Positions 30,602 to 53,935 of a DNA stretch of 64,000 nt are shown here, piece after piece. The position numbers and the translations under genes are program-made. This stretch comes from Dictyostelium discoideum (taxonomy: Eukaryota). Position 1 is the stretch's first letter, and each line of letters begins with the position of its first letter. The stretch spans positions 4,928,001 to 4,992,000 of the forward strand of contig CM000152.2 in assembly GCA_000004695.1 (NCBI GenBank), given 5' to 3'. The notes beneath the pieces are model-generated. The model was not told where the DNA came from, searched no databases, and saw only the letters and a program-made list of their open reading frames with translations.

Positions 30602-32414
30602 ATGGCATCTAGCTCACCAATGTTTAATGATCATGCAATTGCAAGATCAAAATATGCATTAAATAGTGTACTTCAACAAACAAATGAATTACATGATGGA
30701 AATGGTGGTGGTGGATACACACCATCCTCACCACATTTAGGAGGTGTATCATTAAATAAATCACAAAATCAGCCATATACTCAATATAATAATGGTGGTG
30801 GTGGCGGTGGTGGTGGTGGTGGTCATATTAATCCCATGCATTTAAATTTAAATTCAATTACAAATAATCATAATAATCATCATAATCATCATCCAAATAC
30901 ATTAAGTACACCACATAATAATAATCATAATAATAATAATCATAGTACATCACATCATCCACATAGTAATAGTGTTGCAAATGGTGGTCATTTATCACAA
31001 TCGATCACACAACAAAGGGGTGGATTGGCAGATTTAGCAAATGCTGTAATCAATAGAAAAAATAGATCAGATTCAGTACAAACCAAAATGAAACCAACCG
31101 ATTCAGCTAGTAATATAGAATCTTGGGCAAAAGTTGAAAAATTCTCAAGTTCAATCTTTGATTCTGAAAAAAGTAAAAAATCAAACATTTTCCAAAAATA
31201 TACTCTCAGATTAAAAAATTCTTATGAAAAAGGTTATTTACATCAACATTATAATTCACAAATTATGTTATTAAGAGTAAGTTTATATATAAATATATAT
31301 AAATTAATAAATTAATAAATATTAAAATTCTAATTATTATTTTTTTTTTTTTTTTGAAAAAAAGATTACAAATTTAATTGGTATAGTTGCAGTTTCATAT
31401 GGATTTACAAAAGAAGCGATTTTTATGTTAATTGCAATTAGAATATTATGTTTTAATTTATTTGCATTTTCAATATTTTTATCATTTTTAAGAAATCGTG
31501 AATTGTATAAAAAGTTATTTCATCCATTATTTTTATTTTCATTTACAACATTTTTCATTACAATTTTATTGGAATATAAAACCACAACAACAACATTAAT
31601 TTTATTTCTATATGTTGTAATATTTTGTTGTCTATATGCACTCGGTTGTTTATTATTCATTTGGATGGTAATGTGTAATTTAATGAATGCAATTTGTTTC
31701 ATTATTTTCATATTCTTAGAATCAACACTCGATAGAAATAATTTAATTTCTTTTGTAATTTATATTTTAACAATGTTTTTAGTTGGTGCAAGTCATTTAT
31801 ATGTTTTAGAAAAGTTTAGAAAAGAGGTAAGTAAAAAATATTATTTATATTATTTATATTTTATTATTATTTATACCAAAAATATAACTAATTATTATTA
31901 TTATTATTATTATTATTATTTATTTAATTATTTTTTTGATTCTCTCTATAGAGTTTTATTGCAGAAAAGAAATTAATTAAAGAATCAAATATTTTAAAGA
32001 ATGAAAAAGAGAAATCATCAAAATTATTAAATAATATTTTACCAGATTTTATTATTGAAAATATTGTATATGATTTTGAAAAGAGAGATATTGTAATTCC
32101 AGAGCCAGAAGAGTACAAATCATGTTCAATACTTTGTTTTGATATTGTTCAATTTACAAATATGAGTGCAAAATTAGATTCACCATCACGTTTGGTTGAT
32201 TTGTTAACCCAAGTATTTAGAGAATTCGATACAGTAGTCTTAAGAAATGGTTGTCAAAAAATTAAAACTGATGGTGATGCTTACATTTGTGCTTGTGGTT
32301 TAAAGAGTAAAAAGAAAGCAAAGAAACAAATGCCAAATAGTAAAAGTACTCCACTTTTACAATCAACTTCTTCAACAAGTGTAAATAATATAGATTTAGA
32401 TAAAGATAATAAAG

Positions 32415-32445
<31 letters not shown>

Positions 32446-35128
32446 TAGTAACAATAATTTTAAAAATAAAAATAATATTATTAATAATAATAATAATAGC
32501 AATAGCAACAACAACAATAACAATAACAGCAACAACAACAACATCAATAACAGCGGTAATGATGATGATGATGAAGAAATTGAAGATAGTGAATTAGAAC
32601 ATTTTGAAAAATTAATTGATGTTGCAATTGAAATTATGAATTTAGATGTTTTAAAAGAGACTGGTAATACTGAAGGTATTCAAGTACAATTTAGATGTGG
32701 TATTGCAGCTGGTTCAGTTTATGGTGGTGTTATTGGTTCTCAAAAGTATCAATTCGATATTTGGGGTGATACAATCGCCAGAAGTCATACCCTCGAACAA
32801 TTGGGTCAACCAGGTAAAGTTCATGTTGGCGAAACAATCATGACCCACAAAAATTGGTTGAAAAAGTGGCAATATAATTATAATATCGTTTCAAACTCTG
32901 AATGTAAAGATCAAGAACATGATTATGAATTTCATAAAGCTCATGGTGAATGTATAACAAGTTACTTTGTAGATTGGAAAGATGACTATAGAGAGAAAAA
33001 GAAAAAAGATTTATCTTGTGACTTTAGTATTAATAAAGTTTTAAATGCTGAAACAATTGAATCAAAATCAAATAATAATAATTATAATAATAATAATTAT
33101 AATAATAATAATTATAATAATAATTATAATAATAATAATTTAAATAATAATAGTAATAATAATAATAATGAATATGGATCATCGTCTTCATCTTCTTCAG
33201 TATTAGGAGAAGCTGTTACCGAACAAATTGATTGCAACAATACAAATCCACCATTACAACATAAGAAATCACAATCAATTTTAACAAATAATGAAAATGA
33301 TATTGTTTCACCATCACTAACAAGTAATAGTCCAATTTTAGATACAACTGTAAATAATAATAATAATAATAATAATACCAATAATAATAATAAAAATCAA
33401 AATAATATTTATGGAAATAATAATAATAATGAAGAAGATTTTAAAATTAAATCAAAATCAAATAGTTCATTTGAAATTGAAATGTCAAATATTAAGAAAC
33501 CAAAGAGTAGATTTATTGATAGAGTTATGGGAATTTTACATCATGTTAAAATTAGTAATGATAAAATTGATAAAGAGATTATACAAATCGATGAAGATTT
33601 TGTAAAGGTTACAAAATTAAGAAAGTACTTTTTATTTTTTGAGAATTTAACCACCGAGAAATTCTTTCACAAATATGTTATTATCAATAATGTTGTTGAA
33701 ACTAAATTCTTTTTAGTCATTGGTTTAATATTACATTTAATGTTTTATTTAGATGATCACATTATGGATTCTGCACCTTATTTCAATAGTAATGTAATCT
33801 ATTTGGTTATGGGTATTGCATTTTTGGTTTACATTGGTTTATCATTCACTAGAATCTTTAGAACTCCATTGGTTTATCAAATAGCTTTCTTTATTCTCTT
33901 ATGCGCATTTGGTGTTTGTACAGTTTTAGAATTAATTAGATTCCAAAATCCATTAGCAAGATCTTCTTTAACTCGTGTTTGTGCAACTTTATTTTATTTA
34001 AATGTTTTCCATTCTTTAAATTTCTTATCTGTTTTATTTTTAAATCTTTTTATTTTTTGTAAGTATTTATTATATTAAATATAAATATAGAATTTATTTA
34101 TTATTAAAAAAAAAAAGATATTAATATATTTTTTATTATTTTTTTTAGCATTTTTCATAATTTGTAGTATTTTAATTTCACCAACTTTAACAAATCATTT
34201 ATATGAAACCGATTACATTGGATTTGTTATTGTTTTACTTATTCAAATTTGTTCATCCTATGGTATGAAATTGGCAATGAGAAAAGCATGGGTTGTAAAT
34301 TGTAAAATCAATTTTAAGACAATTAGTGTAAATAAAGAGAAAGATAAATTCAATTTCTTATTGAAATCAATTTTCCCACAATCTGCATTAACCAAATTAA
34401 GAGATATGATAGATACTCCAAATATTGAAACCAAAGGTATAGTTTATGTTCAACCACATCAAGATGTTTCAATTATGTTCATTCAAATTGCAGGTTTCCA
34501 AGAATATGATGAACCAAAAGATTTAATTAAGAAATTGAATGATATCTTTTCTTTCTTTGATGGTTTACTTAATCAAAAGTATGGTGGAACCGTCGAAAAG
34601 ATTAAAACCATTGGTAACACTTATATGGCGGTTTCAGGTTTAGATGGTAGTCCATCATTCTTGGAGAAAATGTCTGATTTCGCTTTGGATGTTAAAGCAT
34701 ACACAAACTCTGTTGCAATTTCAAGAGTAGTTAGAATTGGTATTAGTCATGGTCCTTTGGTTGCTGGTTGTATCGGTATCAGTAGAGCAAAGTTTGATGT
34801 TTGGGGTGATACTGCCAATACCGCCTCTAGAATGCAATCCAATGCTCAAGATAATGAAATCATGGTAACTCATAGTGTTTATGAAAGATTGAATAAATTG
34901 TTTTACTTTGATGATGAAAAAGAAATCCTTGTAAAAGGTAAAGGTAAAATGGTAACTCATGTACTTAAAGGTAAAAAAGATCTTGAACAAACAAACAAAT
35001 GGTTCACTAAACCACCCGAAGTTTGGGAAGTTAATGCTACTCCTGCTGGTATTGCCTCACCATTATCTGGAACTCTCTTGGGTGAAATTGGCTCATTCAC
35101 TACTCCAAGATTCCATCTTTCAAGTTAA
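30602..35128 (+). CDS. acaA: Adenylyl cyclase A (aggregation-stage 12-TM class III adenylyl cyclase). CDS is join(30602..31276, 31365..31826, 31952..34058, 34149..35128), 4224 nt, giving 1407 aa.
   Basis: The topology is an N/H/G-rich N-terminus, 6 TM segments, a C1-like cyclase domain (ILCFDIVQFTNMSAKL...KIKTDGDAYICACGL, with the metal-binding Asp residues), 6 TM segments, and a C2-like domain (KIKTIGNTYMAVSGL ... KFDVWGDTANTASRM, with the ATP-specifying Lys and Asp). Three GTAAGT donors lie at 31277, 31827 and 34059, with ag acceptors. All phases are consistent. The computed length of 1407 aa equals the known length of ACA. Confidence 0.85.
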
Positions 35129-35445: not shown

Positions 35446-37153
35446 TTATGGTAATAGTTTTAAAGATTTATTAATTCTATTAAGTTTTTTCATTTTTCTA
35501 CAATTAAAAATCCAAGAAATTATGAAAGCAGTTAGAAAGATTAAAAACATAGAAAGTACCCCACAAAAGTAAGATAAAAGATTTTCCCTAAGTTCGTTCC
35601 ATTGTTTGGCAGTATCACTTGGAGTTTGACATGATTCGGCCAAATCAGTGAATGACGAATCACCATAGAAATTTGTATTTGCTTCATCACAAACAATTAG
35701 TTGGAAATCATTGGTACTTGATGGTGCAAATACAAATTGATTATTGTTGGCAATTACGTCTGATAAGAGAGAATTTATAATCGATGTACCATTTGAAAAA
35801 ATACGATTTGAAAATAAATAAATATTAGACATCTGAGGGCTGAAGAGTCCAACATTACCATGGAGGTTACCTTCTTTGGTGTTAAAATCACTAGAAACAT
35901 ATAAATCAATAGTACTATTTTCAAAGTATGCAAAGGTACTAATTAAGGTTATAACATCCATTATCACACCACTACTATAGTTAAGCTCAACATTGAATTG
36001 ATTTGCATTCAAAAGAGAATTAACAGAATAAATTAGTGATCTTGAACCATCAAATTCTCCAGAAATACTAACTTGGTTTAATGAAACACGACAATTGGAA
36101 AATCTAAGAAAAAAGGAATATATACTTCCATAATATTTTGTATTAATAATTGATACATTATTCATTGTAAAACTACCTGCAGTAATTGAGGCAATTGAAC
36201 TTCCACGATAAATTAAAAAAGAGTTGAAAATTGTATTTGAGATTGTTAAGTCAATTATAGGACCAAAATCATAATTAAGTACAAATGGGACATTATTATT
36301 GACATTGGTGATGTTATTTGAACCAAAATTGCAATTGTTTAAGATGAATGAAATATTGATATTATCATTTGGATATTGTTCACCAAAAAAGTATTGTGTT
36401 ACCATTTTCATTTCTAAATCTTGACTTGATTCATCATTTTTTAACAATTTAGAGGAATCCATTGATAATGGTTTTTTAATTCCATGATTTTTTAAATCAT
36501 TTGATTCACTACTAATTCTTGAATTACCTGAGAGTGAAAAATATGGAGAATAAAGAGATTCACATAAAAAATTTACATTTTCAATATCAACATTTAAAAA
36601 TGCATTTACACCTATATAACCTTGGAAAAAACAACCAGACTCTGAAACATTTAAAGAGTTACATCCAGAGATTGTTACATATCTAATCATAATGTTTGTA
36701 GGAACAATACTAGTTGCTTTATATGGATATTCGACAATGAATATTGGTGATACTGTACCATTTATATTTGGAACTAAAAATTGTACCAAATCATTTGAAT
36801 TTTGGGCACTAATAGAAATATTCAAACCATATAAATTTATTGGATTTTGAGAATAATAATTTCCTGAATCCAATAAAATTTCAATTGAATATTGATTATA
36901 TTCATAGGATTTGATTTGTTGAATTGAATAACCAATTGTTTTTCTAAAAAAAAAAAAAAAAAAAAAAATTAATTAATTATATATCATTACCAATAAATTA
37001 TTATCATTTTTTATTTATATATACTTACCATGGAGATGTAAAACTACCACAAGAGTTATTATCATTACCACTATTGGAAATGTATTTTGAGAATTGTATG
37101 TTACCAAAAGTTGAATTTATTAAAAGGAAAATTAAAAGTATTAAGTATTTCAT
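35446..37153 (-). CDS. Type I membrane glycoprotein with beta-helix-like N-x-S/T-rich repeats. This is paralog 1. Exons: join(37153..37029, 36943..35446). The junction codon reads TGA (see findings).
   Basis: Exon 1 reads MKYLILLIFLLINSTFGNIQFSKYISNSGNDNNSCGSFTSP plus TG, followed by a GTAAGT donor. Exon 2 reads (A)KTIGYSIQQIKSYEYNQYSIEILLDSGNYYSQNPINLYGLNISI... A C-terminal TM segment (LLSYFCGVLSMFLIFLTAFIISWIF) and a basic tail follow. It is homologous throughout to 37873..39936. Confidence 0.6.
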
Positions 37154-37872: not shown

Positions 37873-39936
37873 CTATGCAGAATCATTGATTGATAAAAGT
37901 GATTTTGCTGCTTCTGCAGCTTCTTCTTCTTTTTCCTTTTTTAATTTTTGAATTGCTTTTCTTTTTCTTCTACAACACTTTCCAATAGCTGAAATGGTGA
38001 ACATAGTAACGAAAACCAATACAATGGAGAGAACACCACTTAAATATGATATGATAATTTCAAGTAAGTTGGCGTTAGTATTCCAAAATGATAAAACATT
38101 AATTTTAGCTTGACAAGAATCAGAGTAAGAAGTGAATTGATAATCACCATAGAATCTTGATATTCCATAGTCACATTGGACCAATTGATAAGAGTTTACA
38201 CTGTAAGGTGCATATTGGAATTGATTATTATTTGCTGATACATCTGAAGATTGAGAGTAAACAATTGATGAACCATTGGAACTGATACGATTAGAGAAAA
38301 GGTAAAGCTCAGAATTTACTGGATTGAAAATAGCAATATTACTTGAGAAATAATTTTTAACATCAGATTTTACGGATAAAACGATAGTGCTATTTTCAAA
38401 GTAAGCAAATGATTCTGTTAAAGTGATAAGATGATATGAAATTTCATAGTTTTTCTCTGAAATTATATTGAATTGATTGGCAGTTACAATACAATTAACA
38501 GCTTTGATAAATGGACCACTTATGGAACCGGAAATACTAACTTTGTTAAAAGAGACACGAGCATTAACCAAATAAAAGAGAGAGTTTGTTCCATTTGACA
38601 CAAATGATAAAGAAACAATAGAAACATTATCCATGGTTAAACTACCTCCGTAAAGTTGTACAAGTGGAGCACTATTAAATATATAATTTGTGTTAAAGAT
38701 TGAATTTGTGATTTTTAAATCAATGGTAAAATCAAAATTGGCATTTAAAACAACTGGATATTGATTATTCATTTGATAATTAAATTGACAATTGTTAAAG
38801 GCGAAAGAAATGTTAATGTTGTCATATGGATAAGAGTTTACACCAAATACTTGGTCTACAACTTCCATATAGAGATCTTGATAATAATTGTTATTATCAT
38901 TTTCACTATTATATGAAGATTCTGATGAATATGATTCTGGTGAATATGATTCTGATGAATATGATTCTGATGAATATGATTCTGATGAATATGATCCTGA
39001 TGATTCTGATCCTGATGATTCTGATGAATATGATCCTGATGATTCTGATGAATATGATCCTGATGATTCTGAATTGAATTCAGATGAATATGATTCTGAA
39101 TTTGATTCTGAATTTGATTCAGATGAAGAGTAAGATTCTGAACCATATGGAAGTTGATTTTTTTTTTGAGCAAGTTGATCATAAGAGTTATAGTTGTTGG
39201 AAACTGAAAAATATGAAAAATCGCTATTTGCACATGAAAATATTACATTTTCTGTTTTTACATTTAAAAATAGATTTTGGTAGGAATTAATATTTGATTG
39301 TAAAAGTAAACCATTCCAAGTGTATGATAAATCACAAGTAACAGTAAGATCTCTAAAAACGATATTTGTTGGAATAATATCATAATAATTTGAATGGTCT
39401 ACAGTGAATTGTGCTGTACCTAATGATGATGATGCTAAAAGTTGAACCGATTCTCCTGGGTTGGCTGCTCCAATTGTAATATTTAAACCATATAAATTGG
39501 TTGGTGTTAAAGAATGATGTGTTCCACGACCCAATAAAATTTCAATTGAAAATTGCTCATAAGAATATGATTTGATTTGATTAATTACATATTCAATTGA
39601 TTTACTTTTGTTTTTTTTTTTTTTTTTTGATAAAAAAAATAAAAAAAATAAATAAATAAAAAATTAGTATAAAAAATAATTTTGGTAAAATAAATAAATA
39701 AAAATAAATAAAAAATAAAAAATAAAAATAAAAATAAATAAAAAAAAAAATAAAAAAAAAAATAAAAATAAAAAATAAAAAAATAAAAAAAAAAAATTAA
39801 CTTACCATGGTTCCGTTGATGCACCACAATTTGGTTGATTATAACCATTAAAATCAACATATTTTTGAAATGTGATTTGGCCAAGTGATATATTTACTAT
39901 TGAAAGTAATACTACTAAAAGATTAAATATTTTCAT
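37873..39936 (-). CDS. Type I membrane glycoprotein, paralog 2, with an internal Ser/Glu/Tyr-rich tandem repeat. Exons: join(39936..39806, 39604..37873).
   Basis: Exon 1 reads MKIFNLLVVLLSIVNISLGQITFQKYVDFNGYNQPNCGASTEP plus TG, followed by a GTAAGT donor. The acceptor is caaaag at 39606-39605. The junction codon TGT encodes Cys. Exon 2 reads CKSIEYVINQIKSYSYEQFSIEILLGRGTHHSLTPTNLYGLNITI..., then a (SESYSSE)-type repeat, a TM segment (LSGVLSIVLVFVTMFTISAI) and a KKEKEEEAAEAAK tail. Confidence 0.7.
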
Positions 39937-40326: not shown

Positions 40327-40362
<36 letters not shown>

Positions 40363-40464: not shown

Positions 40465-42967
40465 TTAAACCTTTTGATATCCATCATGTAAAGATTCAGT
40501 TAAATTAATATCAATTTTAGCACCTTTGATTTGATCACAGTAAGGAGTGTCAGAAAAATAGATTTGATTTATATTCTTTGGTTCCAATTCTTTTTTAATT
40601 CTTTCAGCCAAACCTGGAATACAAGAGAAACCACCAGTGATGACCAATTTTGAGAGATCATCTAAATTATTTTTAAAAGCTGGACGATTTCCCATTTGAT
40701 TGACGAAATTGGTGAGTGTAACGATAATATTTTCAGAGGCTTTATTTTTTTCAGAGAGTTGTGGATTAAAGTAGATTTCTGGAATTTTCGTAATGAATTG
40801 TTTGGAGGTTGGAGTATTTCTTTGTTCATTTTCAAAATCTAGACTAACTCTGACCATTTGATACCATGTAGGTTTTAATGAAAGACCACCTTTAGTAGTA
40901 GAATAGGAGGAATCTTGATAAGAGTAACTTTTAGTATACAAATCTTTATGACATTCAGAATTTTCACCGGCCATTGCAGCTATGCTATTAGCTTCATCAA
41001 TGATATCTTGACCAATCATAGATAAATTGATTGCATCAATTTGTTGACCATCTTGAAAAGCGGCTAAAACAGTGGTTTGACTACCAAACATTAAAACCAA
41101 ACCACTCTTTAATCCATGGGATTGTAATGCTAATAAACCACCATTTTTATAGAGAACCAATTCATTTGGTAGGTATCTTCTAATCTTTGAAAGATAATTA
41201 CCACCATCAGAACCAGCATAATTCAAAGGATTTACAATTAAAACGATTGGGGCATTTATTCTTATTCTTTTGAGTACTCTTTGAACCGAATATTTAATCA
41301 ATTCTTTCAATGGTTCATTCTCGAGGAATCTACCATTTCTAACACCAAAATAAAGGTCAGAGGTGGTTGTATCAGGACCAACTACCCATTTGTATCTATC
41401 CATTGACGACATAACATAGTGAGGTTGATATTCTTGACGTTTACCAACTCTTTGAACAAAAGAAAAAGCATAATTTATAGGTTCTGAGGAACTACAAAGT
41501 TTAACTCTCTCTGAGCCTATATCTAGGATCACGATTTGATTCTTTTTATAAAAGGTGTGAATATTTTGATAGGTTAACATCCATCTCTTGACATCCATTT
41601 TGGTTGGTTTTGATTTACTAGATTTAACAATTGATTCGTGGATTGAATTAACTTTGAAATTCAATACGTAATTCTTTTCAAAATTGAATGCCTCCATTGA
41701 GAAATCACGAATATAAATTCTTCTCCAAAGTGAATCCTTTGCCACGATGGTTGCAAAGTACTTACTGGTGACCCTTAATCTACCCAAATCAATTGGTTTC
41801 AATAGCACTAAAATATCGAATAGTTGCACCTCTGGTATGGTTGATAGTGTCACCAATGGTTTCTTTCTCAATGGTGATGTCACTGAAATATTCATATTCT
41901 TTATCTTTTGAGTGATTGCATCAATTGATGGATAACCCGTCAATAACATTTGAGCCTTTACATATAACGAAATTGCAGACTCAAGATCTTTCTCATCCTT
42001 TTCCTTTGAATCGGCTTTAAAGAATGTTGTCTTTGCCAATTCCATCTCTGCCTTCTCTTGAGCTGAAATCTCTTCATCCAAATTCTTATCTATACGAAGG
42101 AACATCATATCGACACGAACAATATATTTGACACCCTCTAAAACTTCTCCACCATCATGGAGAGTATCATGATTGAAAATGATTGCACTACCACTCTCTG
42201 GAACTACTGTGTCCTCCAATACATGTTTATCCAATAACAATGGGTTCTCAGAGGTAAAGAAATTGGTATTACCACCTTTAAATCCATCGTTTAAATAAAT
42301 TTGAATGGTATAAATTGAACGTCTATCTGGGTTGTCTGCAAATACTGCATCATAATGTGCCTTGAATCTACTACCTGGTAAATATTTGCTAAATGTAAAA
42401 CAATTATCAATACCAATTGGAATCCAAACTCCCTTTTGATCGAAACCATAAGGTCTAACACCTTCCAAATCACTCTCTCTAAAAATTGCTTCTAATCTTT
42501 CCCATAAAATATCTGATAATTTATCACTCTTTCCTAAATATCTTAAATTATTACGATATCCAGTTGGAAATTCTTTTTCAATTGAAACATAACCTTTTCT
42601 TTCACTTTCTTCAATAAAATGTCTTTATTTATTTTATTTTTTTTAAAAAATATATATATACAAATAAAATAAAATAAAATAAAATAAAAAATAAAAAATT
42701 AATTGATTTTTTTTCTTTTTTAAAAAAAATTTTATAAAAAATAAAAATAAAAATAAAGAAATAAATTAGAATCACTTACAAACATTCTTCTTTTGTTAAA
42801 ACATTTGTAACTTTAAAACCATTTGAGGTTGATAATTTTAAATCTGTTCTTTTTAATAATTCAGGTTTAAAATTTTCATTAGTAATGTTTTCATTAAAGC
42901 TTAATAAATCACTACCTGTTATAACCCTATTTTCTGGACATGTTGTTGTTGCACCTTCTTCTGCCAT
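40465..42967 (-). CDS. Multidomain protein with a prolyl-4-hydroxylase-like 2OG-Fe(II) oxygenase domain, an F-box, and an actin-related (Arp-like) domain. Exons: join(42967..42780, 42622..40465), about 780 aa.
   Basis: Exon 1 reads MAEEGATTTCPENRVITGSDLLSF...TKEEC plus TT, with a GTAAGT donor at 42779. The acceptor is aaag at 42624-42623. The P4H-like core is FKAHYDAVF...IYTIQIYLNDGFKGGNTNFF...GSAIIFNHDTLHDGGEVLEGVKYIVRVDMMF. The F-box is LSTIPEVQLFDILVLLKPIDLGRLRVTSKYFATIVAKDSLWRRIY. Actin-fold motifs are IVILDIGSERVKLC...YAFSFVQRVGK and LVITGGFSCIPGLAERIKKELE. All three domains lie in one uninterrupted 667-codon ORF. Confidence 0.65.
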
Positions 42968-43131
42968 TGTTATATATAACAATTATAATAGTGTCTTTTT
43001 AAAAATAATAAGAAAGAAAAAAAAAAAAAAAACTTTCAAAAAAAAAAACTTTCAAAAAATAAATGAAAAAAAAATCATAAAAATTCCATGAAAATACTAG
43101 AAAATCTTGTTTTTTTTTTTTAAAAGTTTCT

Positions 43132-43174
<43 letters not shown>

Positions 43175-43504: not shown

Positions 43505-43572
<68 letters not shown>

Positions 43573-43938: not shown

Positions 43939-45927
43939 TTATTTTACTTTTGTTGCCATTGGTACTATATCAATTGGTAAATTAAATCTAAAACCTTTTA
44001 AATTTATAAGTTTAACAGTTGGTGGTATTGAACCTTTAGTGAAAATTTGACAAATATCATAGATTGATATTTCTTGAACAGATTCAGGTATTATACCTTT
44101 TGTTATTGTATGAGAGAAACCATCGGTAAACATTAAATATTTAATAGTATTTGGTATTGAACCAACGGTTAGAGGATGACGTATATCACCCAAATACAAA
44201 GTATCAACCGAGGAAGGTATGATATCAGTATTGATATGATGAGTGAACCCATTTGCAAATATTAATTTCCTAACGACACTTTCATTGATTGAACCTTTTT
44301 GTAAGGGTTGAATGATATCGAAAAAGTATAATCTTTCCAAAGCAACAGGGAAATTGAAACCATTGTTAAATACATCGGGAGTGATAGTGAAATTGAAACC
44401 ATTATTAAACACCAACTCTTTTATTGTTGAGGGTATGGACCTACGAGTGAGTGGTTTCTTTATTGAACCTATATAAAGTGTTTGTACGGAACGTGGTATT
44501 TTACTAGCTTTGATAATATGTGAAAATCCATTATCAAAGTATAACTCTTGAATGGTATTTGGTATTGATTCTTTAGTCAATGGTTGTACTATATCGTTGA
44601 TGTATAATGATTGAACCGTTGGTGGTATAACATCACTACAAATTGGATGTTGATAACCTTGATCGAAAAACAACTCTTTTACACCTCTACCCACTGACCC
44701 CCTAATTAATGGTTCCTTTACATTATGTAACATCAATCTACTAATCGATGGTGGCATAATATCATTTGTAATTAAAAAACTATATCCATGTGATAAACTT
44801 AACATTGTCACCGTTGGAGGTATTGATTCCTCTGTCAATGGTTCAACAATATCACAAACATACATCTTTACAACTGATAATGGTATTATCTCTTTTTTAA
44901 TCTTTTGATTAAATCCACTACAAAATATAATTTCTTTTAATTTATTATTCTTAAATTCATTATTTGTGTTATTATTATTTTTATTATTATTATTATTATT
45001 ATTGTTGTTGTTATTATTGTTATTGGTATTAATTGATGATTTAATTAATAAAGATTGATTTGTTAAAGGTTGTTCTAATTTACCTAAAAATAATTTAACA
45101 ACAGTTGGTGGTATCATTGTTTCACCGATTATTTGATGAGAGAAACCATTGAAAATATACAAATTTAATAAATTACCATTATGTGGTAATGATAATTCAT
45201 CCAATGGCTCAACTATATTACCAATTGAAATGGATGTAATTGTTGATGGAATTGTATCGGCTCTAATAGTATGATTAAAATCATCATAAAATATAATCTC
45301 TTTAATTGTTGAAGGTATTGAATCTGATGTTAATGGTTTTTCAATTGAACCAATAAATAATTTTTCAACTGTACATGGTATAAATCCTTTACTAATTTCA
45401 ATATTAAATCCATCATATAAATATAAATTCTTTACACTTGATGATATTTTAATTAAATTATTATTATCTTCTTCCTCCTCTTCTTCTTTTTCTTTTTCTT
45501 TTTCAATATTTTCAATATTTTCAATATTATTATTATTATTATTATTATTATTCTTTTTATTTTTTTTATTTTTTGATAATTTTGTAATTGCTAAATTTAT
45601 AATACCATCTGGAATTGGTTCGCCGTGATTTAAATAAAATTCTTTATCTTTACAACATTCTAAAACTATTTTTTTATCAATCATTAAATGACTATTATTA
45701 TTACTTTTGAATGGTTGAGAATCAACAATGAAATTGGTTTTAATTAGTTCAAATGCTGTATCCAAAATATCTTGATTAATTATTAAATTACTTTCTTTAA
45801 AATGTTCATATCTTTTTAATTTCCTTTCAACTAATCTATTGGTTTTATCACTATCCTTTAATAATGTTATATATTTATTTTGTTGATCTTTTTGTTTATT
45901 AATTATTTCAACTGATGTTTGTTGAAT

Positions 45928-45986
<59 letters not shown>

Positions 45987-46761
45987 GCTGTTGTTCTGAA
46001 TTATTACTATTATTATTTATAGCACCAGATGAAGATGATAATGTAGTAGAGGGAGTAGATGTTGTTGTTGTTGTTGTTGTTGTTGCTGTTGCTGTTGTTG
46101 TTGTTAATGGTTTTAAAATATTATCTAAATCATATAAATTTATATTGTCATTATGTTTATTTATTAAATTTGTAATTAATTGATTATCTGTATCAATTTC
46201 AGATTTAATTTGTAGAAAGGTTTCTTCATTTTCTGATAGTTTAGTTTCTAAAGTTCTCTTTATATTGAGTTCTAAAATTGATAAAATGTTATGTAGTTGT
46301 TTGAATTTTGATGTTAATGTTGTTAGATTGACTTTATGTCTATCTTGAATTTGTTGAAAACAATCCTCCACTGCGTTCATTATCGCTTTATCACTCTCTC
46401 TATATCCTACCAATGATGGAAATTGTTCTTTAAATTTGTCCAATATCTTTTTAGATTTCTCTAGATTCAATTCACTGAATTTATGTCCATTATGCGTTGA
46501 TATTATACATTTAACACAAACTGGACTAATACATGAATCACATATATACACTATATCATTATCTCTATGATATGAACATTTTGAATCTTCAATCTCTTCT
46601 ATATAATTATCTTCTCCACCACTATCAACTCCCTCGCCACCATTTTCTTCATCTTTAAAATAATTATTAAATGTATTATTATTATTACTAATATTATTGT
46701 TATTATAACAATTATTATTATTATTATTATATATTGAGTTATTTATTCTTGAAGGAACCAT
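43939..46761 (-). CDS. B-box zinc finger / coiled-coil / FNIP-repeat protein. It is a single exon of 940 aa.
   Basis: The B-box is CSYHRDNDIVYICDSCISPVCVKCIISTHNGHKF. A coiled-coil region, poly-Thr and a (CAA)n poly-Gln tract follow. The C-terminal half consists of about 15 tandem FNIP-type repeats (DGFNIEISKGFIPCTVEKLFIGSIEKPLTSDSIPSTIKEIIFYDDFNHTI...). Confidence 0.75.
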
Positions 46762-49090: not shown

Positions 49091-50539
49091 TTATTTTGGT
49101 AATTTTTTTAATTCATGTAATAACCAAATGGCAACACTTAATAAAGTTAAACTACCAGTTTGATGAGCAGCACCTAAAGAAACTGGAACAAAAGTTAAAA
49201 GGGTTGTAATACCTAAAGCGACTTGAGCGGTACCAACAGCTAAAAGACAATTTGTTGCTAAACGAGCTTTTGGTGACAAAGCAAGACGACCACGATAAGC
49301 GAAAGCGGATAAAGCTAAAATTGAACCATAAGTGATTGTAGCCAAAACTCTATGTTGGAACTGAACGGTAACATCATGTTCAAACATATTCTTGTAGGCT
49401 GGTTTAATCTTTGGATTAATGATATCATCTGGAATCCATTGATGACCCATTTTTGGAAAAGTATTATAAACCAAACCAGCGTCTAAACCAGCGACGAATG
49501 CACCACTCATTGCAGTTAAAAATATTAAACCACTTACTTGATGAGAGTATTTCTTCATTTTTTCAATTGTGAATGATGATTTTTGTTGAGCAAGTGTCGA
49601 CATTGCAGACTTCAATTTCTGCATCATTGCAGGTGACAAAGCTGATGGTCTGACCAAGCCCAAGCCAAACCAAAGCAATGCCATATAAATCACAAATGCA
49701 CTACCTAAATGGGCGGCTAAACGGTATTGACTGACTCTTGGTATGTCGCTACCACGATCTTGGATCAACTTTTCATCCAAACCGGATTTCACCATATACC
49801 AACCCAATGCACCTTGTGCACCACCCATTAAAAATACAACTGATAACTTTTTAGCTAGTGAACGATTGATATAACCTTTCTTTAAATACCACACAAATGG
49901 GAAAAAGAAAGCTACACCAATAACTCTACCCAATAAACGATGAGAATATTCCCAAAAGAAGATCTCTTTAAATTCACTCAATGTCATACCCATATTCAAT
50001 CTTTTATATTCTGGAAATTGTTTATACTTTTCAAATTCAGCTTCCCATTCCTCTTGAGTAATTGGTGGAATTGCACCAACAACTGGTTTCCAATCAACAA
50101 TTGATAATCCTGATTCTGTTAAACGTGTAATACCACCAATAACAATCATTGCACCAACTAATCCACATGAAAATAATAACCAATTACCAACTTTTTTATT
50201 ACCTTTACTTTGTTCTGGTTCTTTATAATCTTCTTCATTATTATTACTACTATTATCATTTGTTTTTTCTTCTTCTTTTACTTGTTCATTTGAATTTGTT
50301 TTATTTTCATTTGAATAAAATCTTTTATAATAATTATTATTATTATTATTTAATGAAATTATTGAATTTAATTTTGAATTTGATTGTAAAAAACCATTAT
50401 TAAAACTTTGATTAATATTATTATTTTTTGATAATCTAGATGATACTGATAAAATATTACTATTGTTTATAATAAGGTTTGATTTTGTTTGTTTAAAGAT
50501 AGATGGCTTTAAACATCTTAAACCAGCTCTATTCAACAT
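49091..50539 (-). CDS. cox15: Heme A synthase COX15 (cytochrome c oxidase assembly protein). It is a single exon. The true ATG is probably at 50539, because the ORF track starts 2 codons upstream at GTG 50545.
   Basis: A mitochondrial presequence (MLNRAGLRCLKPSIFKQTK) is followed by the CtaA/COX15 core (GGITRLTESGLSIVDWKPVVGAIPP...EFKEIFFWEYSHRLLGRVIGVAFFFP...). This includes conserved His-containing TM helices and multiple TM segments. Confidence 0.85.
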   Translation of the reverse strand: MLNRAGLRCLKPSIFKQTKSNLIINNSNILSVSSRLSKNNNINQSFNNGFLQSNSKLNSIISLNNNNNNYYKRFYSNENKTNSNEQVKEEEKTNDNSSNNNEEDYKEPEQSKGNKKVGNWLLFSCGLVGAMIVIGGITRLTESGLSIVDWKPVVGAIPPITQEEWEAEFEKYKQFPEYKRLNMGMTLSEFKEIFFWEYSHRLLGRVIGVAFFFPFVWYLKKGYINRSLAKKLSVVFLMGGAQGALGWYMVKSGLDEKLIQDRGSDIPRVSQYRLAAHLGSAFVIYMALLWFGLGLVRPSALSPAMMQKLKSAMSTLAQQKSSFTIEKMKKYSHQVSGLIFLTAMSGAFVAGLDAGLVYNTFPKMGHQWIPDDIINPKIKPAYKNMFEHDVTVQFQHRVLATITYGSILALSAFAYRGRLALSPKARLATNCLLAVGTAQVALGITTLLTFVPVSLGAAHQTGSLTLLSVAIWLLHELKKLPK

Positions 50540-50869
50540 TGTCACTTTTTTTTTTTTTTTGGTTTAAACAAAAAAAATAAAAAATAAAAAATGATAACAA
50601 AAAAAAAAAAAAAAAAAAAATGAAAAAAAATAAAAAAAAATGAAAAATTAACAACGCAATTTGTCAATCACCATAATTCGGGAATTTCAAGTAAAAAATA
50701 AAATAAAAGATATTTTTGAAATTTACATTAATTTTAGTTTTTTTTTAAAAAGAAAGAAAATAGTTTTTTTTTTTTCTTTTAAAAGAAAGAAGAGATTTAA
50801 AAAAAAAAGATCCAACATTTTATTAATATTTTTTTTTTTTTTTTGAATTTAAAAAAAAAAAAAAAAAGT

Positions 50870-53800
50870 TTAATCTTTTGGTTGGAAGAGAAAATCATCT
50901 AAACCATCAGATTGTTGATTTGAAGTTTTAAATTGATCAAGGTCAACATAACATAAATCTTCAAATTCTTCATCAAAGTCAACAGGGATTTGATTCTTTT
51001 TTGGAGGTTTATTTGGTGTAGTTTTAGGTGATGAAGTTGTTGTTGTTGTTGTTGTTGTGGTGGTTGCTTTTTTTTTGGTTACTTTTGATGGAGATGGTTT
51101 TGTTGGGTTAGTTGTATCTTTATCTTTTGTTTTTTTTACAGTTGTTGATTTTGAAGAAGCAACAGTAGAAGCAGCAGCTTTTGAAGATTTTAAAGCAGCT
51201 GGTTTCTTTGAGGTTTTGGGTTTATTTTTTGATGACATCATTTCATCTTCAAAATTTGATCCATCATAAATTGCATCTGAAATATCATCTTCATCAATAC
51301 CATCTTCGTCATCATTATCATATTCATCATCTTCATCGTCATCAGAATTATCTAAATCGCTATTATCATCTTCTTCTCCACCACCACCACCACTACCATT
51401 CTTTAATTGAAGTTTTAATAATTTCTCTTCTTTTCTTCTTTGTTTATCATCATATTTTTTTTTTCTAATTTGATCTTGTTCCTCTACTTTTTTAATTAAT
51501 GAATCTATGAAATCATCTACACTTTGTTCACCATGTTCTAATTGACCAGCATCTTCAGCATTTAAAGATTGACCGTCTTCATCATCTAAAACTCTGCCCA
51601 ATAGAGTTTTCTTTGATTCCACTAATGACCAAATCATTTCATCCACTGTACCTAATGCTATTAAATATTGAACTAAAACCGAAGAGGTTTGACCATAACG
51701 ATGAGCTCTATCCTCTGCTTGAAATAAAACACCAGGTGTCCATGATAACTCTGCAAATATTACACAAGTGGCAGCGGTTAATGTCAAACCAGTACCAGCG
51801 GCAGTAATACTTAATACAGCCACCCTACAATTTGGATCATTTTGAAAATCATTAACATAGTCATTACGATTTTGAGCGGGTGTTGAACCATCGATTTTAA
51901 TAAATTCTAATTTCTTTTTATCAACCTTGATCTTACCTAACATATGAACTATACCATTGATCACTTCTTTATGATGTGCAAATATTAAAAACTTTTGATC
52001 AATTGGTGCATCAACTAACTTCTCCTTTAGAAATTGAGTGACCGCTGTCAATTTATATAAACCTGTATCACGAAGTAATTTAAAGAATAGACCTTGTCTT
52101 GAGTTTTTATTTTTGAATGAAGTTTTCATATCGGTATTTGGATCAAGATATACTTTTCTATGTTGATTAATCTCTACCAATGTTTTTTGAACTTCTTTTA
52201 ACTTTGTCTTATCCAATTTTACCAAAATTCTTTCTCTTCTCTTTTCGGGTAACTCTGTCATTACATCATCTTTTAAACGTCTAATCATAAATGTATTCAA
52301 GTAAAGATTTAACTCTTTCATATTGGAACAACCTGAAGTATTGAAACAGAATTTCTCTTGAAAGGCAGCACAATATCTGAATGCATAGTCCCTCCATTGC
52401 ATAAAGTATGGATTGATACAAGATATCTGAATGAATAGCTCCATTGGTCTGGATAATGCAGGTGTACCAGATAGTAGTATACAACGTTTTGATCTTTTCA
52501 ATACTTCAGCTGTTGATTTTGAACGTTGTGAATTAAATTGTTTGATATAATGACATTCATCAGCTATGACAACTTTAAAATTCTTTTGTAAAATTTGATC
52601 CTTCTTTTTAGTGACTAAATCATAACTAATGATATTGATCATACCATTTAAACCACATTTACCATTCATTACTAAATTTATTTCTGATGATTGAATTTTA
52701 TTTGGAAAAAACTTTTCAATTTGGTCTGCCCAAACTAAACGAAGTGATGATGGTGCTATAATTAATAATGGCCATTCCTCTTTATAATGATATGCAATTG
52801 AAATACCTTGTATAGTTTTACCTAAACCCATATCATCTGCAATTAAACATCTACCTCCTTTTTCAATACCAAATTCAATACCTTTAATTTGAAATGGTAA
52901 TAATGTTGATGGTAATTCTGAAAAGTTTATATTTAAATTTTTATTATTATTATTAAATGATGTATTAGTTGTTGCAGTATTTATGGTTGTAGTTGTAGTA
53001 GTTGTTGTTTTTTTATTACAAAACTGATTTACAATATGATTTGGTAAACAAATTATATTTAATTGTGATTGACGTAATGCTCTAAGTTTTGAAACTAATA
53101 ATGCGTGATGCTCAACATTAAATATCCACCAATTACCAATATCATATTCATCACAATAAGCATCTGGTATACTACTAAAGATATCTCTAAGTACTGTATT
53201 TTGTGGGTCCGCACATGAAAATTGCTCTGGTGTAATTAATTGAAATAATAATTCTTTTTTAATATTAAATTGAGTTTGCATAATTGCTAAAATATTTGAT
53301 TGTGTTGGTAAATTATTATTATTATTTTGGTTTTGATTTAAAAATGATTGTTGTTGTTGTTGTAATGGTTGTGGTTTTGCTAAAATTGATGGTATTGGTC
53401 GTTGTTGTTGTTGTTGATGTTGTTGTGCATTCTGTGATGGAACTAAATTATTTTGTGGTTTTTGAGGTAATGATGGCTGTAATGATGTTGATCTTTGAGG
53501 TATTGATGGTTGTAATGGTTTTTGAGGTAATGAAGGTCTCAATGGTGCTAAATGATTATTGCTCAGTATTGGTTTATTGGTATTAGTATTTATTGTTGAC
53601 TGTACAGATGGAGAGGGAATAGATGATGATGATGAAGGTGGTGGCGCTGTTGATATTGAACCACCATTAACAGTGGGTGAAGAAGAGGCAGCTGCCTTCA
53701 CTGGAAGTGATGGTCTCAATGTAAGACCACTATTCATATGTGTCGACACATTTTTTGGTGGTGATATATTTGTTAGAGGTAATGCTGTATTTTTATTATT

Positions 53801-53935
53801 TATATTATTATTTATATTATTATTTATATTATTATTGTTATTGTTATTGTTATTGTTGCTATTTATTATTTCTGTTGAAAAGTCTATATCAAAATCGAAA
53901 TCTTCAATGATAGTACTATTATTATTTGTTTCCAT
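50870..53935 (-). CDS. SMARCAL1-like SNF2-family annealing helicase (HARP domain plus ATPase). It is a single exon of 1021 aa.
   Basis: A HARP-like region lies upstream of the LLPFQIKGIEFGIEKGGRCLIADDMGLGKTIQGISIAYHYKEEWPLLIIAPSSLRLVWADQIEKFFP motif, followed by VIADECHYIKQFNSQRSK and ILLSGTPALSRPMELF motifs. The helicase C-domain has FAHHKEVINGI...KIDGSTPAQNRNDYVNDFQ...AVLSITAAGTGLTLTAATCVIFAELSWTPGVLFQAEDRAHRYGQTSSV. An acidic/basic tail follows. Confidence 0.85.
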   Translation of the reverse strand: METNNNSTIIEDFDFDIDFSTEIINSNNNNNNNNNNINNNINNNINNKNTALPLTNISPPKNVSTHMNSGLTLRPSLPVKAAASSSPTVNGGSISTAPPPSSSSSIPSPSVQSTINTNTNKPILSNNHLAPLRPSLPQKPLQPSIPQRSTSLQPSLPQKPQNNLVPSQNAQQHQQQQQRPIPSILAKPQPLQQQQQSFLNQNQNNNNNLPTQSNILAIMQTQFNIKKELLFQLITPEQFSCADPQNTVLRDIFSSIPDAYCDEYDIGNWWIFNVEHHALLVSKLRALRQSQLNIICLPNHIVNQFCNKKTTTTTTTTINTATTNTSFNNNNKNLNINFSELPSTLLPFQIKGIEFGIEKGGRCLIADDMGLGKTIQGISIAYHYKEEWPLLIIAPSSLRLVWADQIEKFFPNKIQSSEINLVMNGKCGLNGMINIISYDLVTKKKDQILQKNFKVVIADECHYIKQFNSQRSKSTAEVLKRSKRCILLSGTPALSRPMELFIQISCINPYFMQWRDYAFRYCAAFQEKFCFNTSGCSNMKELNLYLNTFMIRRLKDDVMTELPEKRRERILVKLDKTKLKEVQKTLVEINQHRKVYLDPNTDMKTSFKNKNSRQGLFFKLLRDTGLYKLTAVTQFLKEKLVDAPIDQKFLIFAHHKEVINGIVHMLGKIKVDKKKLEFIKIDGSTPAQNRNDYVNDFQNDPNCRVAVLSITAAGTGLTLTAATCVIFAELSWTPGVLFQAEDRAHRYGQTSSVLVQYLIALGTVDEMIWSLVESKKTLLGRVLDDEDGQSLNAEDAGQLEHGEQSVDDFIDSLIKKVEEQDQIRKKKYDDKQRRKEEKLLKLQLKNGSGGGGGEEDDNSDLDNSDDDEDDEYDNDDEDGIDEDDISDAIYDGSNFEDEMMSSKNKPKTSKKPAALKSSKAAASTVASSKSTTVKKTKDKDTTNPTKPSPSKVTKKKATTTTTTTTTTSSPKTTPNKPPKKNQIPVDFDEEFEDLCYVDLDQFKTSNQQSDGLDDFLFQPKD

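Follow-up and report, generated by a model that had tools for sequence, protein, structure and literature searches.

The minus strand of a 64,000-nucleotide (nt) stretch of Dictyostelium discoideum DNA (GenBank assembly GCA_000004695.1, contig CM000152.2, positions 4,928,001–4,992,000; hereafter the window) carries fbxE, a two-exon gene whose 781-amino-acid (aa) product, FbxE, joins an oxygenase, an F-box, and an actin fold in a single chain. The spliced product is letter-identical to XP_640639.1 / EAL66653.1 / UniProt Q54TF2, i.e. the DDB_G0281783 protein of D. discoideum AX4, which is deposited under the title "F-box domain-containing protein", and a tblastn search of the window reveals no second copy of the gene. 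From the N to the C terminus, the protein contains an oxygenase of the prolyl 4-hydroxylase (P4H) class, one hairpin resembling a tetratricopeptide repeat (TPR), an F-box, and a complete actin fold (Table 1).

An earlier reading made from the letters and open reading frames (ORFs) alone (the sequence-only reading) had assigned three domains to this locus, and these assignments are supported by Pfam, profile, and structure comparisons. Specifically, Pfam matches were judged against the curated gathering cut-offs, which all three domains exceed, while family profiles built from 10 to 20 relatives were searched against Protein Data Bank (PDB) sequences, and residue conservation was scored on an alignment of 157 family members obtained from an exhaustive profile search. 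Another word-indexed search for homologues, started from a diverse alignment of the family, yielded no additional members. The full-length AlphaFold model has a mean predicted local distance difference test score (pLDDT) of 76 and shows folded domains with disordered linkers at residues 306–320 and 382–406. The motifs on which the assignments had been based are all present in the 781-aa product, i.e. FNHDTLHDGG (residues 212–221), KYIVRVDMMF (228–237), the F-box string (330–356), ILDIGSERVKL (428–438), and LVITGGFSCIPGLAERIKKEL (722–742). The segments evolve at different rates: median identity to nondictyostelid members is 38% in the oxygenase, 20% in the TPR-like hairpin as in the F-box, and 16% in the actin-like domain.

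Table 1. Features of fbxE in the window (positions count from the first letter of the window).
Feature	Residues	Positions	Strand	Basis or remark
fbxE coding region, 2 exons	781 aa	40465..42967	−	spliced translation equals the deposited protein
Exon 1, 188 nt	1–62 + 2 nt	42780..42967	−	ATG at 42967; GTAAGT donor at 42779
Intron, 157 nt, GTAAGT...AAAG, 5.7% GC		42623..42779	−	excision restores the frame and yields the deposited protein
Exon 2, 2158 nt	63–781 + TAA (40465–40467)	40465..42622	−	frame open from the splice acceptor at 42622
P4H-type 2-oxoglutarate/Fe(II) dioxygenase domain, intron inside	~30–245	42076..42880	−	
Iron ligands 1 and 2	H152-Y-D154	42349..42357	−	aligned to HxD of solved P4Hs
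Iron ligand 3 to 2-oxoglutarate C5-carboxylate ligand	H218 to K228	42127..42159	−	aligned to TLHGGAPVTKGEKWI of 3itq
Single TPR-like helical hairpin	~250–295	41926..42063	−	AlphaFold 2 helices 250–271, 276–291
F-box	321–372	41695..41850	−	Pfam and profile
Degenerate actin-fold domain (orphan actin-related protein)	406–781	40468..41595	−	profile, Foldseek, and Pfam
D-loop-equivalent motif YQPHYVMSSMDRY	461–473	41392..41430	−	aligns to actin residues 39–52

The gene model itself is simple. Exon 1 encodes a disordered N terminus followed by the opening strands and helix of the oxygenase domain, and the exons have a GC content of 26–33% vs 5.7% for the intron. The sequence spanning the junction, TKEECL/HFIEES (slash at the junction), is kept in all orthologues. 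The first exon of 62 codons that had been proposed is found, i.e. residues 1–62 plus 2 nt. The second exon, proposed as 667 uninterrupted codons, is indeed uninterrupted but contains 719 codons; the smaller figure belongs to an ORF called mechanically, with the first in-frame TTG (position 42468) as its start.

The fusion is not particular to D. discoideum. An ortholog search in other Amoebozoa, which had been put forward as a check, finds the same domain order in at least 10 dictyostelid proteins and, each time within one transcript or gene model, in Physarum, Arcella, and Dracoamoeba. All dictyostelids sampled carry it (Dictyostelium citrinum, D. firmibasis, D. cf. discoideum, D. purpureum, Polysphondylium, Tieghemostelium, Heterostelium, Acytostelium, and Cavenderia), and beyond Amoebozoa it occurs in the chytrid Nowakowskiella, in Naegleria lovaniensis, and in the choanoflagellates Choanoeca flexa and Salpingoeca infusionum (taxon names for distant relatives are from 20 exact look-ups of representative matches). 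Pfam calls the three domains in most representatives, with Actin falling below threshold in both choanoflagellates and one Naegleria paralogue, and the F-box not being called in the Dracoamoeba protein, where Actin and the oxygenase are. The choanoflagellate proteins and the other Naegleria paralogue still give collinear matches to the family hidden Markov model (HMM). Several of these relatives come from transcriptome assemblies, and the fusion therefore exists as mRNA. That the combination has persisted in lineages as distant as Amoebozoa, a chytrid, choanoflagellates, and Naegleria speaks for a joint function of the domains.

These data also bear on whether two or three adjacent genes have been read as one. 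Exon 1 alone depends on a predicted splice, and some orthologue models look over-merged (D. purpureum, 2127 aa; Heterostelium, with a C-terminal Arf domain), which would be in line with such an artefact. Against it, the oxygenase catalytic core, the F-box, and the actin-like domain all lie within one stop-free exon of 2158 nt, as a single-protein reading of the locus had claimed, and many genera and independently assembled transcriptomes show this order too. An artefact of the gene model is thus effectively refuted and, for practical purposes, excluded.

Independent duplications have occurred in the family, with two copies each in D. cf. discoideum, D. firmibasis, Physarum, and Naegleria. The two D. 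cf. discoideum copies carry adjacent locus tags (ACTFIZ_002478/002477), the AX4-type window being single-copy. In the D. purpureum model, only the first 766 residues match FbxE, and in the 882-aa model of Heterostelium album a truncated actin-like domain is followed by an Arf GTPase domain (PF00025).

The oxygenase is the slowest-evolving segment of FbxE. Pfam assigns residues 139–231 to 2OG-FeII_Oxy_3 (PF13640; E = 8e-9), and the oxygenase profile matches the prolyl 4-hydroxylases of Bacillus anthracis, Chlamydomonas, and PBCV-1 among PDB sequences (E = 5e-12 to 7e-5), with the HxD motif, distal His, and Lys of FbxE in register with the catalytic residues of 3itq and 5hv0. Like the solved P4Hs 3itq (B. 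anthracis), 2jig (Chlamydomonas P4H-1), 5c5t (PBCV-1 vCPH), and 6tp5 (human P4H-TM), the domain has the double-stranded beta-helix fold, the HxD...H triad, an aligned lysine that binds 2-oxoglutarate, and an N-terminal helix with an L(S/T)xEEC motif. Unlike them, it shares its chain with an F-box and an actin fold, and it contains four nearly invariant, family-specific residues (R86, R90, Y143, and R232). Among the 157 members, H152, D154, and H218 are each kept in all 157 and K228 in 154. Invariant catalytic residues combined with the slowest evolution are the pattern expected of a working enzyme and, judged from these residues, the FbxE oxygenase looks active.

The domain groups with collagen-, algal-, viral-, and bacterial-type P4Hs, apart from PhyA and the PHDs. 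We find no specific relatedness to PhyA or PHD2, and no match in FbxE to a JmjC-class catalytic domain, the oxygenase being of the PF13640/P4H type. Structural scores against OGFOD1, PHDs, and lysyl hydroxylases are only slightly below those against P4Hs. Because proline-rich peptides are the substrates of the nearest solved relatives, our best guess for the target residue is a proline, most likely within a proline-rich segment. In a 503-aa metagenome protein from ENA, a distant relative of this oxygenase is joined to a phosphomevalonate-kinase domain (PF04275), which shows that the P4H-like domain also enters other fusions.

PhyA belongs to the same oxygenase superfamily as FbxE, is likewise O2-dependent, and is linked to Skp1 and the ubiquitin ligases of the SCF (Skp1–cullin–F-box) type. 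It is a small stand-alone enzyme that modifies Skp1 and does not dock on it via an F-box. It could be argued that the SCF machinery is what FbxE modifies, e.g. that FbxE is another hydroxylase of Skp1, or one of a cullin, delivered by its F-box, which would position the enzyme on Skp1, a protein that is prolyl-hydroxylated in Dictyostelium (Boland et al. 2022, PMC9485057; PMC10307954). We regard this as highly improbable, given that the literature names PhyA as the Skp1 prolyl hydroxylase, that phyA-null cells cannot glycosylate Skp1, and that the FbxE oxygenase falls in a different P4H branch from PhyA.

The segment between the oxygenase and the actin-like domain begins with the TPR-like hairpin. 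Residues ~258–292 resemble one TPR unit when the family profile is compared with the consensus TPR (per-repeat E-values are weak), and the hairpin is common to the whole family, with Y283 and A286 nearly invariant. The F-box that follows matches Pfam F-box-like at residues 323–368 (E = 2.4e-9), and its profile matches F-boxes that have been solved with Skp1, i.e. FBXL5 (E = 5e-11), KDM2A/B (1e-8), and Skp2 (1.6e-7), as well as FBXW7 and Cdc4. The AlphaFold 2 model contains the three helices of an F-box, at residues 327–334, 339–348, and 350–356.

Published data support Skp1 binding. Fig. S3 of Boland et al. 2022 (PMC9485057) lists the gene, which we recognised by its matching F-box sequence, under the name fbxE; it is recovered there in four Skp1 co-immunoprecipitation (co-IP) settings, i.e. 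with the monoclonal antibody 9E10 (anti-myc) and the polyclonal antibody UOK77 (anti-Skp1), each in vegetative and slug cells. It is accordingly placed in the class "avsum", which the figure and its key define as a UniProt-annotated F-box plus all four co-IP settings, and is marked "PhyA enhanced: veg", meaning that its recovery is higher in cells able to hydroxylate Skp1. For fbxE, nothing is entered under "substrate receptor/other" in that figure, which lists neither an oxygenase nor an actin domain (PMC9485057). FbxE thus binds Skp1 in cells, according to these co-IPs, and the proposal that its F-box implies SCF recruitment is backed at the Skp1 step.

The C-terminal domain shows the complete four-subdomain actin fold. 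The best Pfam Actin stretch covers residues 674–745 (E = 5e-9), the domain profile matches PDB actins over actin residues 43–353 (E = 1e-27), and the best 50 Foldseek matches are all actin-containing entries (target template modelling score ~0.7, 15–19% identity). At actin positions, the domain keeps D11, G13, K18, G156, G301–G302, and G342, i.e. the phosphate-1 D/G, the adenosine GG, and structural glycines. By contrast, G15 is changed to E, Q137 to G, and D154 to M, while D157, H161, and K336 are also altered, and the same positions vary family-wide. With the loss of these residues, ATP hydrolysis by the domain is unlikely and nucleotide binding doubtful; the absence of equivalents of Q137, D154, D157, and H161 points to a binding rather than an ATPase role, and the domain would be a noncatalytic binding module.

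The D-loop-equivalent motif contains a histidine (in PHY, residues 463–465) that 22 of 23 diverse members share, at a position where actin has Q41. Residues 461–471 have pLDDT values below 50 in the AlphaFold model and are predicted to be flexible; a flexible loop with a family-wide conserved histidine fits an interaction surface. We also considered this Pro-His-Tyr as a proline substrate in cis for the oxygenase and dropped the idea, since only the histidine is conserved outside Amoebozoa and Naegleria.

As in orphan actin-related proteins (Arps) and several nuclear Arps, the surfaces of the domain are divergent and its nucleotide motifs weakened. Unlike Arp1–Arp11, it fits no numbered class: its best 60 profile matches and best 50 structural matches are conventional actins, which are also the best solved matches. 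A single-sequence PDB search had returned Arp5 over 90 residues (E = 1.4e-3), an assignment that is overruled by the profile and structure searches.

The domain might nonetheless be a working cytoskeletal or chromatin Arp that caps or joins actin filaments or sits in a remodelling complex, with the F-box and oxygenase bringing degradation or hydroxylation there, for example of actin or of a proline-rich actin regulator. The full four-subdomain fold would suit such a role, and the dictyostelid D-loop keeps the Met-x-x-Met spacing of actin M44/M47 next to the family-wide histidine. The proline-rich peptides on which the nearest solved oxygenases act are also consistent with it, and the carrier lineages found, a small sample, all appear to include crawling or amoeboid cells. 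However, the domain has not conserved the ATPase machinery or a large part of that for nucleotide binding, sequence divergence is extreme, no Arp1–11 class is joined (Arp5 being the best single-sequence PDB match), and DDB_G0281783 lies outside the curated D. discoideum actinome. As such, we consider a working Arp unlikely.

Two known systems share part of the FbxE architecture. The first is plant ARP8/SUSA2 (At5g56180), whose F-box binds ASK1 and whose actin domain has been proposed as an SCF target-recognition domain; SUSA2 acts genetically as an SCF component, and mutating four predicted nucleotide-binding residues left its function unimpaired (Liang et al. 2020, PMC7562919). In both proteins a divergent actin fold comes directly after the F-box, with ~50 residues between them (F-box 321–372 and actin fold from ~406 in FbxE; F-box ~40–86 and actin domain from ~135 in SUSA2). 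SUSA2 differs in having neither an oxygenase nor a TPR-like hairpin, and its actin domain is nearer to actin (~27% identity) and, unlike that of FbxE, keeps the D11-G13-S14-G15-K18 loop and Q137.

Compared with a SUSA2 sequence rebuilt from noisy text produced by optical character recognition (OCR) and a hand-entered human ACTB sequence, the family HMM scores ACTB at 197 vs 126 bits for SUSA2, the dictyostelid HMM 90 vs 63 bits, while pairwise BLAST with the Dictyostelium actin-like domain gives 1e-12 for SUSA2 vs 1e-6 for ACTB. On a specific relationship of the domain to ARP8, these comparisons point in opposite directions. Based on the same OCR-rebuilt sequence, no close relative of SUSA2 is found among the FbxE family members. 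Liang et al. 2020 (PMC7562919) stated that the pairing of an F-box with ACTIN seen in SUSA2/ARP8 is plant-only. Pfam finds F-box plus Actin proteins in Physarum, Arcella, the chytrid, and Naegleria, and the combination is thus not confined to plants; all of these proteins bear the extra N-terminal oxygenase.

The second system comprises F-box proteins with an oxygenase, i.e. JcdI/JcdH and KDM2A/KDM2B (FBXL11/FBXL10), in which, as in FbxE, an O2/2-oxoglutarate-dependent oxygenase and an F-box are found in one chain. Of the solved F-boxes, those of KDM2A/B rank among the best matches to the F-box profile of the FbxE family, and the KDM2 order is that of FbxE, i.e. oxygenase, F-box, and C-terminal binding domain. 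The oxygenases of all four are of the JmjC type, whereas that of FbxE is of the prolyl-4-hydroxylase type, and none has an actin fold. For JcdI, an F-box protein of Dictyostelium that contains a 2-oxoglutarate dioxygenase domain, O2 dependence and Skp1 binding have been demonstrated; like FbxE, JcdI is Skp1-associated and PhyA-enhanced in vegetative cells, while its oxygenase lies C-terminal to the F-box, opposite to FbxE (PMC9485057).

Around fbxE, the DNA is AT-rich, as is typical of Dictyostelium, and homopolymer A/T runs of up to ~70 nt flank the gene (43100–43170, 43505–43570, and 40330–40360), as is usual in the intergenic DNA of this genus. In the upstream neighbour, an ORF of 940 aa (43939–46761, minus strand), Pfam recognises a B-box zinc finger (E = 3e-8) and FNIP repeats (E = 1e-51); Boland et al. 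(PMC9485057) note that Skp1 interactors commonly carry repeats of the FNIP type. On the plus strand, the consecutive ORFs at 32162–34078 and 34265–35128 each encode the catalytic domain of an adenylate/guanylate cyclase (E = 2e-26 and 2e-56) and probably represent exons of a single cyclase gene with two such domains, to which ORFs at 30602–31976 may also belong. The minus-strand ORFs at 37873–39534 and 35446–36873 are long and have no Pfam match; the former contains a long Ser/Glu/Tyr-rich repeat (SESYSSE...), a hydrophobic C-terminal stretch, and a basic tail, and resembles a membrane-anchored repeat protein. Two further minus-strand genes, a COX15/CtaA haem A synthase homologue (49091–50545; E = 1e-107) and an SNF2-family helicase (50870–53935; E = 1e-32), are housekeeping genes unrelated to fbxE.

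Given this architecture, we wondered what FbxE might do. The reading that we tentatively prefer, well aware that it could prove wrong, is that FbxE, a hydroxylase dependent on O2 and 2-oxoglutarate, is tethered to the SCF scaffold and binds its client through the actin-like domain. The F-box would dock FbxE on Skp1, and the actin-like domain, which occupies the usual substrate-receptor position of F-box proteins, would select the client, a role that has been proposed for the actin domain of ARP8/SUSA2. Using O2 and 2-oxoglutarate, the oxygenase would then hydroxylate a residue, most likely a proline, on the client or on a partner in the complex, and this hydroxylation may be coupled to client ubiquitination or complex assembly. 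As binding of FbxE to Skp1 is favoured by the O2-dependent modification made by PhyA, two oxygen-dependent steps would converge on FbxE.

Several points weigh against SCF tethering. In the Skp1–Skp2 and Cdc4 structures, the side N-terminal to the F-box, where FbxE has its oxygenase, is not the one that presents substrate to the ubiquitin-conjugating enzyme (E2). The actin-like domain is fast-evolving, with 13–22% identity across the family, which fits poorly with a highly conserved client such as actin. For FbxE specifically, the literature searched reports neither Cul1 nor Rbx1 in a complex, and no substrate, enzyme assay, or mutant phenotype. Finally, Boland et al. (2022, PMC9485057) argue that some F-box proteins act independently, carrying an F-box only for their own turnover.

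This last point leads to the main rival of SCF tethering, i.e. that FbxE is primarily a self-regulated hydroxylase, as JcdI has been modelled, whose F-box controls its own stability or solubility via Skp1, with no client being ubiquitinated and the actin-like domain providing localisation or substrate binding. The effects of JcdI overexpression required dioxygenase activity and not the F-box, and soluble recombinant JcdI required co-expression of Skp1 (PMC9485057). The strong constraint on the oxygenase, greater than on any other part of FbxE, and the empty substrate-receptor column in Fig. S3 (PMC9485057) are also consistent with self-regulation. By contrast, the F-box has stayed beside the actin-like domain across very distant lineages, and substrate receptors are usually laid out with the F-box ahead of a C-terminal binding domain; FbxE shares this order with SUSA2, which is genetically an SCF component (PMC7562919). 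On balance, we see self-regulation as a serious competitor that is rather less probable than SCF tethering.

The gene itself is already named and known as an Skp1 interactor, while its oxygenase and actin-like domain are, in the literature searched, previously undescribed and unstudied. Specifically, a search for DDB_G0281783 or fbxE together with Dictyostelium found no main-text mention, and the only literature trace is the supplementary-figure row located via the F-box peptide (PMC9485057 Fig. S3). The main text of Boland et al. 2022 (PMC9485057) does not take up the gene, the 2023 FbxwD/vWFA paper does not mention it, and it is missing from the 2008 D. discoideum actinome, whose 41 members are actins, filactin, and Arps 1, 2, 3, 4, 5, 6, 8, and 11. 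The sequence-only reading could assign the architecture to no described family. This holds for the triple fusion and for a P4H-type oxygenase joined to an F-box, both undescribed in the literature searched, but two of the pairings have precedents, i.e. F-box with actin (ARP8/SUSA2) and oxygenase with F-box (JcdI, KDM2A/B).

With what appears from its conserved residues to be a catalytically intact domain of the prolyl-hydroxylase type, FbxE would be a second oxygen-using enzyme on the Skp1 scaffold after JcdI. PhyA tunes Skp1, and hence which F-box proteins assemble into SCF ligases, in an O2-dependent way. An actin fold at the substrate-receptor position has a sole described parallel in plant SUSA2/ARP8, and the distribution over Amoebozoa, a chytrid, choanoflagellates, and Naegleria marks a widespread and unnamed family.

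A broader proposal, which we consider a long shot, is that this family is an ancient module predating the split of Amoebozoa, Opisthokonta, and Heterolobosea, in which an O2-sensing prolyl hydroxylase is linked to SCF turnover of actin-cytoskeleton regulators via an actin-mimicking receptor. If this were true, plant ARP8/SUSA2 would be a descendant that lost the oxygenase. Dictyostelium aerotaxis requires neither PhyA nor mitochondria, and its sensor is still unidentified (PMC10307954); an ancient module of this kind would link O2 level directly to cell motility and would make FbxE a candidate sensor behind this behaviour.

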